Below, piece by piece: positions 30,204 through 62,905 of a stretch of DNA of 64,000 nt (the stretch's first letter is position 1; each line of letters begins with the position of its first letter). Where the stretch lies: NCBI GenBank assembly GCA_964016885.1, contig OZ024743.1, positions 72,726,001-72,790,000 of the forward strand, given 5' to 3'. The notes under the pieces are model-generated. The model saw nothing but the letters and a program-made list of their open reading frames with translations. It did not search any database and was not told the DNA's origin. The position numbers were made by a program, and so were the translations under genes. This stretch comes from Eledone cirrhosa (taxonomy: Eukaryota).

Positions 30204-30248
30204 AACGATGTACTAGTTTCAAGCTTGTTAGCTATCATCAGCACCGTT
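30204..30248 (-). ncRNA. Type-I hammerhead ribozyme (H1), inverted-arm copy
   Basis: Exact reverse complement of 30420-30464. Confidence 0.85.
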
Positions 30249-30419
30249 TACCCATCTGCCAGTGAGAAATGAAATTTCGTTTTCATTTTGTTTCAATTTA
30301 TCGTTTTCGGTATGCCTGACCGATTTAACTCACTCAATATGCAAATTAGGCTGCTCAGCCGTTAATTTTCATAACGAAAGTATATACTTTCGAACGTTCA
30401 ACTATCTGGCAGATGGGTA

Positions 30420-30464
30420 AACGGTGCTGATGATAGCTAACAAGCTTGAAACTAGTACATCGTT
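30420..30464 (+). ncRNA. Type-I hammerhead ribozyme (H1)
   Basis: aacggtg-CTGATGA-tagct-aaca-agctt-GAAA-ctag-TA-catcgtt; 7-bp stem I, intact core, palindromic ACTAGT stem III; predicted cut after 30457. Confidence 0.88.
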
Positions 30465-30914
30465 CCTGTGTCAGTGTTGAACAAAAAGGTGACGTGGTTG
30501 CCTTAACACCGTATGGCATAAATTCAGGCTGTTCAGTTTGTTTACAAACGAACAAAGCGACGTTATAATAAGCGCCGCTAAACTGATACGTGCATATATG
30601 TATGTGTACCTGTATGCATATGTATATATATATGTATATATATATATATATGTGCATGCTACTGTACGTCTGTATACATATATGTATGTACGTATACATG
30701 CATACTTACATTTAAGTAAGTGCCATACTAAGAGTGAGAAATGAAATTTCGTTTTCATTTTGTTTCAATTTATATATATATATATATATATATATATATA
30801 TATATATATATATATATATATATATATATACATATATATATATATATGTATTCTTCCACCGGTTGCAACGTTTTTTGAAATATTCACTTCTGCGTTTACA
30901 GATTGACTTTGTTA

Positions 30915-30985
30915 GTTTCAGAAGTTCCCGTTAAGGGTGAAAGCAGCGATTCTTTTCTTAAACTTTAATCTGTTATGTTAATAAA
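30915..30985 (+). ncRNA. Hammerhead-like motif, family H7 (decayed)
   Basis: gttt-CAGAAGT-tccc..gggt-GAAA..TT-aaac; homologous to 37390-37462 and 63853-63910. Confidence 0.4.
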
Positions 30986-31741
30986 TATATATATAGATTA
31001 CAAGTTGGCATAAACATCTTTTATGCAATTTGTAATCTATGAAATGTATGTGTTTTAACTATGCCAACATGTATTTATCTGAGTTTGAATATTTATACGT
31101 ACACATAATTGATATTATTTTAGAGCGTATCTTATGGTGTATTTTACTAAGTGCAATTTACCATACCGTACCATATTGTGTTGGCTATGTTGTATATTAT
31201 CGCATTACTGTATTTCATTATCTTATTATAAATTTCATCTTTTAATATACATCTTTCCTAGCCGAAACCTTAATTTATATTCACCTAAAAACTCAATACA
31301 ACACTAAACACCATTTATTTTGACATTCCTTTTAAACCTCACTATACCAGATATATTCAACTATCAGTTTGACAATCCCTTTCCTCCTAGTAGATTGTTA
31401 TGCCAATTCTACTATTAAGACCATTCAACCATTCATTTCAAAGGGTCATGACCTCAACTAAAGTGTATTACTTTTCATCTTAACACCATATGAAAAAAAC
31501 AATTTGATTGGTTAGTTCTTCAACTACCTCCAAATAATACGAACATACCACTAATATAATACGAACATAATACGAATATAATACGAACATAATACGAACA
31601 TACCACTAATTCTGAATAAAATTATTATTGCTTTTGAAAACAGCTGGTGATATTTTTTTTTCTCGTGCAATGTCCATACTCGATAACGAGGGGGCAGCCA
31701 TCATATATATATATACACACACACACACACACATATGTGCA

Positions 31742-31860
31742 GTGAAGGCGCGTGGTTGACTGTTTAGTGAATTGGATTCGCAATTGTGAGGTTGTGAGTT
31801 TGATTCCCGGACCGAGCGATGCATTATATCCTTGAGGTATACACGTCATTTCACGTTCCA
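31742..31860 (+). mobile_element. tRNA-derived SINE family 2 (CORE-like), 5' part
   Basis: A/B-box-like ggcgcgtgg..gagtttgattccc followed by tccttgag..catttcacgtt; related minus copy at about 32745-32835. Confidence 0.65.
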
Positions 31861-32229
31861 TGGATTTGCGATCGGTAGATAGTATTAGTAATTGGAAAGA
31901 CTAATGGAAGCGTTATTTCCTCTGTCCGATTTGGTGAGCTCCGCTCCATTTGTTAAACGAATAAGGTCTGGGATCTTCTCGGTCGACTGTTATACACACA
32001 TATGTCGATGCGCTTGTAAATCACCATCTCCCGATCAATCGAAGGAACAGCTTGCTACTGACATTGTAACCACCGATAAGCCGACGAAATTTCAAGATTA
32101 TTAGACCCACATTCACGTAGAATGCTTTCTTTTCACTGTTCTTTTATTTCAAACCTCGCCACTCTGAATGATGCTTCTCATGATGCCTGTCTACATTCCA
32201 TAAAATAATTACTACAACCAGTAGTCTCC

Positions 32230-59559: not shown

Positions 59560-59838
59560 AGAATTTACGGGGAAAACCAACAGGAAGAAGACCCAGGGGT
59601 AGACCTCAAACATGATGGTTGGATAACAACCATGAGCTTGACTGTTCTCGCTTGGGGATCCAGCCGGATCAGTTGGGGGTGGCTGCTTCTGACAGGAACC
59701 GCTGGAAAACGTATTTGAGGACTTTGCCCACAAGAAGAAGAAGAAAAAGAAGAAGAAGAAGAAGAAGAAGAAGAAGAAGAAGAAGAAGAAGAAGAAGAAG
59801 AAGAAGAAGAAGAAGAAGAAGAAGAAGAAGAAGAAGAA
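59560..59838 (+). mobile_element. RTE-clade LINE 3' end with (GAA)n tail
   Basis: RPRGRPQT*WLDN..ASDRNRWK then (AAG)n. Confidence 0.75.
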
Positions 59839-60124
59839 GTTACATATAATTACAAGGAGATAATAAAATAATAGTTCTACATGTTGAAAGTGATTAAGCA
59901 TATTTGTTCAAAATAAAGAATGTCATATAAACAACATCAACTTTGAGGTAGTTATATTTAGACAATGTGTGACAAATACAATGAGACGCTTGTGACATCG
60001 TCTGGACCATTTATATGTAAAACACAAGTCATATGAATAAATAGATGAATGAATGAATGAATGAATGAATGAATCGTTATAAAACCAGACAAATAAATCA
60101 GTAACACACATGTACACGCGGTCC

Positions 60125-60410
60125 GAACACAGAGGAGCCAACTCTGTGCCGAAGGTGGTGTGTAGGGATGTGGCCCTAGGGCCAAGGACATCAGTGGTCT
60201 CCATTGCTACGGGCTTGACTGCAAACCTGTCGGAGAGTGACCGATATTTGGGGAGTTTACCTTTCGCAGTCCGATGTGCAACAGAACCTAGGTTAGTCGC
60301 AGACTGCACCAGGTTGCCGCTGGAGAATGTGGCGCTGCATATGGCATCCAAGATGAGTGGTTTACCACGGCGGAACGGGAAGATGGTCATGATGTGTGTC
60401 CTTTTGTCGT
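60125..60410 (-). pseudogene. Restriction-like endonuclease fragment of a CRE-like non-LTR element
   Basis: FPFRRGKPLILDAIC..TF..KLPKYRSL..PVAMETTDVLG. Confidence 0.7.
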
Positions 60411-61119
60411 CCCTCGCTTCAGCCTCAACGTCTCGAGCTGGGAGGGGAAGCTTGTAGCTTCACGACAAATAGACAAAATACAATGTCGAAGTTACAGTAG
60501 ATATTCAGGTGAGATATAACATGAAATCAACAACCATGGTCCAAGAACAAGGACAAGCATTTGACAGGTTATGGACATGAAGCATGTGTTGCATTTGGAA
60601 GTTCAGTGAATTTAAATCTCTTATTCATTCTTCCGCTCTTTCCTCTTTCTGTCTTCATCCAACTCGTAAACCTGCGTCATTTACCATAATCTCTGGTTTC
60701 GTCTTGCTTTGTCAATGAAATTGGGTAGAAGGAAATTGATGGGAAACACGTCAGATGGACTCTACATGTAATCCAAAAGTCCAGCTATGTTACACATTAT
60801 GTCGCCTTAATCGCATTGCCAGCTTCGTTATAGGTACACGGGTCTGTAGAATCCTTATACATATACACGTTACGTTCATGAGAAAGCTGTTCAATCGAGC
60901 GAACAATTTGAACACACGTCGAAGAAATACACGAAATTTCATTCCAATCCTGTCCCCTAAATTTCTTTTAATCTTTGCCTTTAGCCTTCCCCTCTCTCTT
61001 TCTCTTGCTCAAGATCTCTCTCTCTCTCTCCCTCTCTCTCTCTCTATCTATCTAATTATCTCTCTCTATATATATCTCTATCCATATATATATATATATA
61101 TAATTTACAAAATTAAATA

Positions 61120-61595
61120 AGCCATCTACCTCCGAACACATTCTCCGGACTGAAGCCTTGTGCAACTGTCTAAACAAGGAAGCATGCCCACTTGAAAACA
61201 GATGCCTGAAAAATGACATCGTATACAAATGTGATGTCATCTCAGGCACCGATGATAGCAACAACAAAAAGACTTACATCGGCATGATTTCCAATAATTT
61301 AAAAAACACGGTGGTATGACCATACCCACTCTTTCAGAAGAGCGGACAAATCAAATCAGACAACACTCGCCTCCTATATCTGGGACTTCAAAAGGAACTC
61401 TACAAGCTTCACGCTTAAATAGAAAATACTCCAGAAAGCGCACTCATACAAGGGAGGACACAAGTGCAGCGAACTTTGTATCTCAGAGAGCTACGAAATA
61501 TTATTTGCCAGGGGCCCGCTACTGAACAAACACTTTGAACACTGCCCGAATTGCATGCACAAAAACTTTGCAAATTTCAAATACCAGATGGCTAA
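61120..61595 (+). pseudogene. Penelope-like (Naiad-type) GIY-YIG endonuclease remnant
   Basis: Manual translation from 61161: CNCLNKEACPLENRCLKNDIVYKCDV..KTYIGM, then after a frameshift RWYDHTHSFRR..TTLASYIWDFK. Confidence 0.85.
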
Positions 61596-62324
61596 AAAAG
61601 ATTTCACTTTTTTTTTAAAACTTCTATCGACCCGAAACACGGCACTTTGGTCATGTAAGTACTTCTTATCTATCTGCTCTTTCCGCATCTAGAGAGTACT
61701 TCATATTTATACTGTATAGGTGTGTGTGTGTATATGTGTATATTTATGAGTCTATGAACGTACGTATTTGTATGAGTGGCCGCACGTATGAATGTGTATG
61801 TTTGTGTGTACGTGCGTTTATATGTATATGCGTATGTTTGTATGTATGTGTATGTGTATGTATATGTATATATATATATATATATATATATATATATATA
61901 TATATATATATATATATATATATATATATATGTGTGTGTGTGTGTGTGTGTGTGTATAAGTATATATATATATGTATATATATGTGTGTGTATGTGTGAG
62001 TGTATGTATGTGTTTATATGTTTATATATTTATATATATATATATATATGTATATATATATATATATATATATATATATATATATGTGTGTGTGTTTGTG
62101 TGTAGGTGTGTGTGTGTGTATGTATGCATATATATATATATATATATATATATATATATATATATATATATATATATATATATATAAATATATATTTTGA
62201 TATGTGTGTGTATGTGTGTATATGTACTCTATGTATGTGTGTATGTATGTGTTTATGTATATATATATATATATATATATATATGTATATGTATATGTTT
62301 GTATATATATATATATATATATAT

Positions 62325-62905
62325 TTCGGTACCCGGACAGACGTTCATCCACGAAACTCGCGAGTCACGTATGGTCCCTCAAGGACTCAAATATAGACTA
62401 CTCCATTCAATGGAAAGCCGTCACTAAGTCCAAGCCATACGCAAGGAGAAGTCCGCCGTGTGGACTATGTATTGATGAACGAATAAATATTCTAAAGAGA
62501 TTATGCAATAGTGATTGCCTAAACACGTGAAATGAATTCTTCACAAGTTGTCCACACATCTCAAAACACCTCTTGAATAACTACAAAGCTCCGGATTGAA
62601 TTACAACAACATCATAATTTTCTTATCAACTAGAAACTTTTAGGGCTTTCGCAGTTGTCTCCCCTACACCTCCTGCGCGCCTTTTAGTATTTACTGTGGG
62701 AAGTGACCGGTTTCTGCGCATGCGCGTTAGTACGGTTGTCCATCCTTTTCCCTATAACCATGTTTATTACGAGCTAAGGATCCGCTAAGGTGAAACAATT
62801 GTTCTCGGTATGGTGAACTAAATGTTGTGTAACCACTTCTACCTAACTCGTCGCATGGACTGAGTGCTCTACCAATACGGATATTACCTTCCAGTTTTCT
62901 ACCAC
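62325..62905 (+). mobile_element. Penelope-like (Naiad-type) 3' end: GIY-YIG C-terminus, UTR and hammerhead, between (TA)n tracts
   Basis: [37 protein letters not shown]; cgag-CTAAGGA-tcc..ggt-GAAA-caattg-TT-ctcg at 62770-62807. Confidence 0.85.

Follow-up and report, generated by a model that had tools for sequence, protein, structure and literature searches.

Hammerhead ribozymes with a palindromic helix III have been described in Penelope-like elements (PLEs), for which many families per genome, pairs on opposite strands and weak dimer cleavage were reported (Cervera & De la Peña 2014, PMC4209133); a U3-A8 core covariant was previously reported in Schistosoma PLEs (PMC4209133). A palindromic stem III and loop III permit a dimeric fold in several ribozymes (Perreault et al. 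2011, PMC3088659, legend of Fig. S8), and the evidence for dimers, including that of Lünse et al. 2017, is summed up in a review (PMC6765202). A PLE origin of retrozymes has been proposed (PMC7229834; bioRxiv 10.64898/2026.07.22.740005), and the role of hammerheads in PLEs is described as still unclear (Craig 2021, PMC8557442). Passages of PMC6155905 and PMC10085705 were also compared. The present analysis concerns the hammerhead motifs in 64,000 nucleotides of the Eledone cirrhosa genome (hereafter the window; GenBank assembly GCA_964016885.1, contig OZ024743.1, positions 72,726,001 to 72,790,000).

A sequence-only reading of this stretch had noticed that stem III of its hammerheads differs between families and is nearly always a palindrome, and had proposed selection for cleavage only in tandem transcripts, with the palindrome as a family-specific dimerisation code. 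Our analysis confirms that the feature is real, was correctly spotted and is of a known kind; the sequences support the dimer part of that reading and do not support the code. Most probably, the motifs are type I hammerheads of PLEs and of their non-coding, retrozyme-like derivatives, in which a self-complementary stem III has been kept for double-hammerhead pairing, the copies in the window likely being inert fossils. Since the mechanism is already known, dimer cleavage of hammerheads with a short stem III having been published (PMC4209133, PMC3088659, PMC6765202), the value of these sequences is that of a test bed.

Stem III of the Hammerheads in the Window

The window has a GC content of 36.8% and is rich in microsatellites; the assembly is 3.0 Gb in size. 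With genomic family members as probes, 21 hammerhead motifs were found in the window (Table 1). Stem III is a perfect palindrome in 14 of them, self-complementary via G·U pairs in three and broken in four. The core (CUGANGA / GAAA / UH, or the U3-A8 covariant used by H2, H5 and the 10906 family), together with stems I and II, is intact in 14 of the 21 motifs, and 12 combine an intact core with a self-complementary stem III. The damaged copies come from families with canonical cores. Ten motifs make up five inverted pairs and the remainder are solo, with no tandem copies.

All seven motifs named in the sequence-only reading are type I hammerheads with palindromes in the register GAA, A15.1…U16.1, H17, stem I, and the coordinates given there (10906, 30204, 37270, 56441 and 62770–62807) are ends of motifs mapped here. 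Several details need correction. AACGTT at 37270 was over-read, as stem III is ACGT, flanked by A14 and U17. The list skipped contrary H1 copies with an intact core, ACTATT (41424) and ACTACT (63487); other broken copies, ACGC (10427) and the 11540 motif, were also absent from it, and the ACTGTACAGT hammerhead at 56247, with an intact core, was missed. ACATGTGT (44069, 45013) and ATCGGT (54364) are self-complementary by G·U only. Damaged cores occur among the named motifs, namely in both H4 copies (CTGAAAGA, with one extra base), at 37270 (CTGATGG) and at 62770 (CTAAGGA).

GAA followed by a palindrome of at least 6 nt and H occurs 42 times in the window versus 15.8 ± 4.6 times (maximum 30) in 100 local dinucleotide shuffles, and a descriptor blind to stem III gave 11 matches in the window and none in the reversed window. 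Rfam gave no match on the window at the gathering score; at E ≤ 10, the 150 listed of 273 matches contained no hammerhead, only microsatellite and hairpin-microRNA noise. Evidently, these short variants score below the curated hammerhead models.

Genome-Wide Conservation of Self-Complementarity

Stem III was examined in 160 evenly spaced 10-kb stretches (1.6 Mb) of the same genome, in which sampled loci carry L-numbers. The descriptor ignored stem III symmetry, clustering was performed with stem III masked, and a cluster present in at least two stretches was counted as a family. The 1.6 Mb and the window gave 290 matches versus 18 in the reversed sequence. Twenty-seven families comprise 194 matches; the other 96 fell in clusters seen in a single 10-kb stretch, among them two satellite-like ones and the singletons, and were dropped. 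Stem III is a perfect palindrome in 17 families, needs G·U pairs in five and is of odd length with one central unpaired base in two. Two of the remaining three families have a long stem III with internal mismatches and a symmetrical centre, and one is broken at the centre.

As an interrupted palindrome is present in every hairpin, information comes from the innermost pairs; these would leave a loop of 0–2 nt and are impossible in a monomer. They are complementary in 26 of the 27 families, and within-stem shuffles (n = 20,000) gave a mean of 9.5 complementary families and a maximum of 19, none reaching 26; the significance is overstated here, since the families are related and not phylogenetically independent. 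An isolated stem III hairpin is predicted to cost more than +1 kcal/mol in 21 families and is impossible in one more, which leaves 22 of the 27 without a favourable monomer hairpin. The predicted cost is +0.4 kcal/mol or less in five families and in H2, and according to this model these may cleave as monomers. Selection for hammerhead–hammerhead pairing is therefore the part of the earlier proposal that stands, whereas cleavage "only in tandem transcripts" does not fit these exceptions, nor the solo and inverted copies of the window.

The hammerhead load of the genome is high. Four narrow patterns (H1, a superfamily with 62,241 hits, H2 and a family with AGAACT or AGGACT) gave 106,946 exact matches, and about 350,000 hammerheads are extrapolated for the genome from 187 non-window family matches in 1.6 Mb. 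The axolotl genome is reported to contain 126,247 hammerheads (PMC7229834).

Covariation and Dimer Energetics

When the first 100 rows of the 62,241-match superfamily were read by eye, stem III was ATGCGCAT in 44, ATATGTAT in 32 and ATATATAT in 17; ATACGTAT was found twice, ATGTGCAT once, and non-complementary sequences in four rows. Both inner pairs vary jointly; sequence beyond stem III shows homology between the lineages (64–66% over 245–365 nt). A similar reading of the first 100 of 1,346 rows of the H2 family gave ACAGAGCTCTGT in 33 and ACAAGGCCTTGT in 18, the G·U intermediates ACAGGGCTCTGT in six and ACAGGGCCTTGT in one, and further variants, mostly with single changes, in the other 42. 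The check for covariation across genomic copies, suggested in the sequence-only reading, thus gave a positive answer: related families covary at the innermost pairs via G·U. Together with the complementarity of these pairs, this covariation supports double-hammerhead cleavage. The palindrome is also conserved across copies, ACTAGT being kept in 24,458 of 26,058 H1 matches (93.9%); as this is mostly shared descent, it was not counted as selection.

For two natural H1 tandems, the double hammerhead is predicted to be more stable than two monomer folds by 16.1 and 15.6 kcal/mol and to come within 1–2 kcal/mol of the free minimum. Comparison of the families supports selection on pairing between two hammerheads.

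The hammerhead elements of the 62,241-match superfamily are short and non-coding; they form inverted arrangements flanked by (TA)n tracts (for example, L084, L119 and L149). A distant relative of H1 (69% identity; L119:1035-1189) has ACATGT in place of ACTAGT, another double change of the central pair, in a single decayed copy.

Penelope-Like and Retrozyme-Like Carriers

Upstream of the 62770 motif, the window contains a remnant of 273 bp with 82% identity to the C-terminal end of a putative reverse transcriptase (RT)–endonuclease, encoded by an open reading frame (ORF) of 628 aa (L214). The 62770-type motif was found in 28 of 30 loci chosen by the protein alone, and 32 of its 38 distinct matches (40 less two double-counted in overlapping loci) read ACAATTGT. 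In L213 and L206, the ORF is flanked on both sides by such a motif, the two being separated by about 2.5 kb. The atlas look-alikes of the L214-type ORF (0.96–0.99) carry the HTH_animal and GIY-YIG families, and RT-like and Cys-linker motifs were read in it by eye; these motifs suggest the Neptune/Nematis type of PMC8557442. Taken together, the sequence suggests that the carrier is a PLE with a C-terminal endonuclease (RT and GIY-YIG) and a hammerhead in its pseudo-long terminal repeat (pseudo-LTR). Positions 61149-61542 contain another PLE-like endonuclease remnant, a more distant one with 29–32% identity to the L214 ORF (E 2e-10).

Families F15 and F19 are found behind PLE-like matches, with two copies each. 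The ORF link concerns the 62770, F15 and F19 families; H2, H4, H5 and the 10906, 37270 and 56441 families are multi-copy in the genomic sample. Traits of PLE-like insertion include the five inverted pairs in the window, the (TA)n flanks and the inverted neighbours in most of the sampled families. At the base of stem II, the 37270 family fits G10.1-C11.1 with an extra base after A9, and the H1, 56182 and 62770 families have U·U. The 10906 hammerhead has a 5-bp stem I, and copies of its family were found in L047, L057 and L069.

H1 is non-coding and forms head-to-tail arrays (L020 and L030), in which the units measure 424–502 bp and each has one type I hammerhead. Its pattern gave 26,058 exact matches in the genome and none in the reversed control. 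The insertion has (TA)n tracts on both sides, and its 5' segment is inverted; a same-strand neighbour is present in four of 21 sampled copies, and direct neighbours in ten of 30 pattern-selected loci, adjacent loci overlapping. Judged by its sequence organisation, H1 is a non-LTR retrozyme-like element with an insertion structure of the PLE type (PMC8557442). Contigs of four sequencing runs were compared; in those of the one deep run, all variant places listed for H1 lay outside the invariant core and stem III, which is not significant with 22 places in 329 nt. A search of RNA data sets for H1 listed none, which does not bear on its expression.

Other tandem arrays were noted in the sample. 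In L090:281-3381 (minus strand), a unit of about 310 bp recurs at least 11 times, each time with an intact hammerhead and stem III ACGCGT, a clean retrozyme-like tandem that would lend itself to assays, and L096:6638-7694 (plus strand) contains three tandem units of 528 bp whose hammerhead has stem III ACTAATTAGT. In the window, an H1 half copy (ACTAGT and the 3' flank, without a core) at 39914-39919 on the minus strand lies about 450 bp upstream of the same-strand hammerhead at 39460 and marks an inversion junction near stem III.

Explanations of the Palindromic Stem III

The explanation we consider probable, PLE hammerheads and retrozyme-like derivatives with a stem III kept for double-hammerhead pairing, draws on the anatomy of the motifs, their multi-copy families, the placement of the 62770 family after the putative RT and GIY-YIG ORF, the H1 arrays, and the complementarity and covariation at pairs that no monomer can form. 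Tandem source copies would be transcribed, and two hammerheads on one precursor RNA would pair through stem III into a double hammerhead, which would cut out a unit-length RNA; this RNA would circularise and be re-inserted by Penelope-type proteins. Stem III would need only to be self-complementary, and with lineages drifting via G·U intermediates its palindrome would come to differ between families. As the window copies are solo or inverted, each strand carries a single ribozyme, and a read-through transcript would fold back on it, so that selection likely acts on source elements rather than on the window copies.

Besides the relatedness of the families mentioned above, several points weigh against this explanation. 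The covariation amounts to about three independent events, and in family F6 a variant with a U·U mismatch, ACCTCTGGT (three loci), is almost as common as ACCACTGGT (four loci). The energy models leave out tertiary contacts between loops 1 and 2. Low in vitro activity of such motifs, even as dimers, has been reported (PMC4209133), and eight of nine published Xenopus dimer constructs were without cleavage. Pfam recognised no family on the L214 and L206 ORFs. Moreover, there is a family with 17,301 matches in which 99 of 100 rows had a stem III of AGAACT or AGGACT and the remaining row had AGAACC, none of them palindromic, and the predicted homodimer of AGAACT is unfavourable (+2.4 kcal/mol). The homodimer of AGGACT is predicted at −1.7 kcal/mol; such dimers would hold tandem A·A or G·A mismatches. 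In the sample, this family is solo or inverted, with none of 20 copies in tandem (for example, L100, L048 and L042).

It appears unlikely that monomer cleavage, aided by tertiary contacts or proteins, prevails in many families, with the palindrome ancestral or optional and dimer cleavage a side route. The feasible monomer hairpins of five families and H2, the spread of the AGAACT/AGGACT family without a palindrome, the few same-strand neighbours of H1 and the good monomer cleavage of most invertebrate retrozymes (PMC7229834) are in line with it; against it are the compensatory changes at pairs closing loops of 0–2 nt, which are impossible in a monomer and are kept in 26 of the 27 families. Another alternative, the least probable of those considered, would treat the palindromes as DNA-level features, such as sites for an endonuclease or other protein or outcomes of template switching, to which RNA pairing is irrelevant. 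Inverted duplications are indeed frequent in these insertions, and the elements contain other palindromes, such as AGTATATACT ahead of H1 and, by chance, ACTCGCGAGT in the endonuclease ORF at 62356. However, the palindrome is always in the A15.1–U16.1 register while its sequence varies by family, and forms of the G·U type, ATATGTAT (frequent in the superfamily above), ACGGCTGT and ACGGTCGT, are fixed; their symmetry exists only at the RNA level.

The sequence-only reading took the palindrome as a selected, family-specific code against cross-cleavage between co-resident elements, which the present data make very improbable. In its favour, there are 22 distinct stem III sequences in the 27 families, only 14 of the 351 family pairs are compatible in stem III, five of these 14 have a cross stem I of at least 4 bp in one direction, and the sister families F1 and F18 alone are compatible in stem III and in both swapped stem I helices. 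Distinct palindromes, however, are incompatible by construction. Among the 17 perfect-palindrome families there are four identical pairs versus 1.5 expected at random, so sharing is not avoided; overall, stem III is identical in five family pairs, and for 16 of the 27 families there is a partner whose stem III is identical or near-isoenergetic. Part of the sharing is ancestry (F15/F31), and ACAATTGT is common to H4, F22 and F23 despite no homology being detectable at the ribozyme. The same sequence was listed in the sequence-only reading itself for H4 and 62770, which lack detectable homology, in contradiction to a stem III that differs between families. At least four stem III sequences are present within the 62,241-match superfamily, the 17,301-copy family is non-palindromic, and in cis, proximity alone gives specificity. 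A family-specific dimerisation code is not supported.

As a double hammerhead swaps stem I strands too, specificity comes from stems I and III jointly and needs no special selection. By sequence comparison, the families are mostly insulated by the two stems together, as drift predicts, and this insulation is presumably a by-product. Searches of the open literature listed nothing on a stem III code specific to families, nor on hammerheads of cephalopods; supplements (the alignments of PMC4209133, Fig. S8 of PMC3088659) and subscription papers may hold such data. A bolder version, to which we give little credence, combines several hundred thousand hammerheads in dozens of families, above any genome in the compared literature, with stems I and III as a selected two-part lock against cutting and circularising across families, and with a 17,000-copy family that swapped its palindrome for an interface of tandem A·A or G·A mismatches. 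Selected insulation, if true, could yield orthogonal pair-dependent ribozyme parts; the present data do not require it.

What is unusual here is the hammerhead load and the large non-palindromic family, which is a ready control. The natural compensatory series at dimer-only pairs, ATATATAT / ATATGTAT / ATACGTAT / ATGCGCAT and ACAGAGCTCTGT / ACAGGGCTCTGT / ACAAGGCCTTGT, are comparative evidence for past selection on the double hammerhead, for which the reported in vitro activity is weak.

Features of the Window and Neighbouring Sequence

Table 1. Hammerhead motifs and associated features of the window.
Feature	Position	Strand	Details
Decayed ACGT-family copy	10420..10453	-	Core CGAATGA, stem III ACGC
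Type I hammerhead, 10906 family	10906..10995	-	U3-A8 core TTGATAA, long stem II, stem III ACTACGTAGT (10912-10921)
Broken hammerhead, 3' half only	11518..11560	-	Long-stem-III family, ACAGTTCTAGTCCTGT type
H1 retrozyme-like insertion	29955..30770 (ends approximate)	.	Inverted 5' segment 30017-30262 and direct unit, flanked by (TA)n tracts
H1 hammerhead	30204..30248	-	Intact core, U·U at stem II base, ACTAGT, 7-bp stem I
H1 hammerhead	30420..30464	+	Intact core, stem III ACTAGT (30451-30456)
Minimal hammerhead	37270..37305	-	Stem III ACGT, damaged core CTGATGG (family: CTGATGA)
H2 hammerhead	38968..39012	+	U3-A8 core, stem III ACAAGGCCTTGT; ACAGAGCTCTGT in sister lineage
H1 hammerhead	39460..39502	-	Intact, ACTAGT; inverted partner is 39981
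H1 hammerhead	39981..40017	+	Intact core, ACTAGT, stem I interrupted after 2 bp
H1 hammerhead	41396..41434	+	Intact core, broken palindrome ACTATT
Hammerhead	44064..44137	-	Intact core, stem III ACATGTGT, self-complementary via G·U
Hammerhead	44953..45024	+	ACATGTGT, inverted partner of 44064, without first stem I pair
H4 hammerhead	49737..49827	-	Core CTGAAAGA (extra base), long stem II, ACAATTGT
H4 inverted partner	49885..49975	+	Core CTGAAAGA, stem III ACAATTGT
H5 inverted partner	54360..54395	-	U3-A8 core, stem III ATCGGT (G·U)
H5 hammerhead	54461..54496	+	U3-A8 core, ACCGGT
Putative decayed pseudo-LTR hammerhead, Penelope-like family of 62770	55654..55691	+	Core TTAAAGA, ACAATTGT
Hammerhead missing from the sequence-only reading	56182..56263	+	Intact core, stem III ACTGTACAGT
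Hammerhead	56441..56561	-	92-nt stem II region, intact core, ACACGTGT
Endonuclease C-terminal remnant of putative 5'-truncated Penelope-like element	62324..62596	+	tblastn 82% to L214 ORF residues 540-628, E 3e-42
Putative pseudo-LTR hammerhead of element with remnant 62324..62596	62770..62807	+	ACAATTGT, damaged core CTAAGGA (family: CTGAAGA/CTGAGGA)
H1 hammerhead	63457..63499	+	Intact core, broken palindrome ACTACT

Several candidates were rejected as hammerheads: ACCGGT at 62706, the palindrome upstream of H1, and that at 62356 inside the endonuclease ORF, the last base of which varies in four of four relatives. GAA-palindromes at 6221, 40558, 43359 and 54610 had no family support in the genomic sample and were left uncounted. 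The AGCT family (57513, 45354) was also rejected, there being no convincing hammerhead core within 170 nt; its sites at 57508-57918 and 45354, both on the minus strand, belong to a repeat family that ends in GAAAGCT and has inverted copies. The 57508 frame has what we take to be a resemblance to a Penelope-type N-terminus, and Pfam found nothing above the cut-off in it.

The window also contains an 879-aa frame with an RVT_1 domain (E 1.4e-29) of a non-LTR retrotransposon at 12429-15068 (plus strand), with nested decayed relatives at 15000-21500 and 25795-27450. Fragments resembling long interspersed nuclear elements of the L1/Tx1 type (endonuclease and RT) were recognised by eye from the ORF list at 192-3501 and 22246-23800 (minus strand). 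Short, near-perfect hairpins resembling miniature inverted-repeat transposable elements around (TA)n, at 55442-55525 and 50069-50190, draw spurious Rfam microRNA matches, and 57925-58124 is an assembly gap of 200 bases of N.

Comparison with Known Systems

The closest likeness is to the minimal, small-helix-III PLE hammerheads of PMC4209133, with which the motifs have in common the type I fold, the palindrome formed by 15.2–16.2 and loop 3, and the U3-A8 variant. Many consensus families per genome, solo copies, pairs on opposite strands 100–700 bp apart, a flanking ORF with RT and GIY-YIG (putative here), and the dimer model are also common to both. Unlike in that description, stem III is often 6–12 nt long here and not absent, several families open stem II with U·U and not with G10.1-C11.1, some stem II regions reach 50–107 nt, and the copy numbers far exceed its 2,000–9,000 per genome. 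The repeat-type hammerheads of PMC3088659 likewise have a palindromic stem III, and the U10.1·U11.1 mismatch is reported there too; the species are other ones.

H1 resembles the animal non-LTR retrozymes (PMC7229834; Li et al., bioRxiv 10.64898/2026.07.22.740005) in its non-coding units, which are arranged in tandem and carry a single type I hammerhead apiece. Helix II of H1 starts with a U·U, as in HHR_Amex2 of the axolotl, for which dimer-dependent cleavage is published. Unlike the published retrozymes, the H1 unit has internal TA microsatellites and a length of 420–500 bp, at or above the published size range. The genome is of the invertebrate type and has a retrozyme that is likely dimer-dependent, whereas Li et al. 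found such retrozymes mainly in amphibians. In the avocado sunblotch viroid and newt satellite 2, tandem copies share a long helix III and cleave faster than the monomer (Forster et al. 1988, cited in PMC6155905 and PMC6765202); a stem III paired between two copies is predicted here as well, with cleavage kinetics as the evidence there and sequence as the evidence here.

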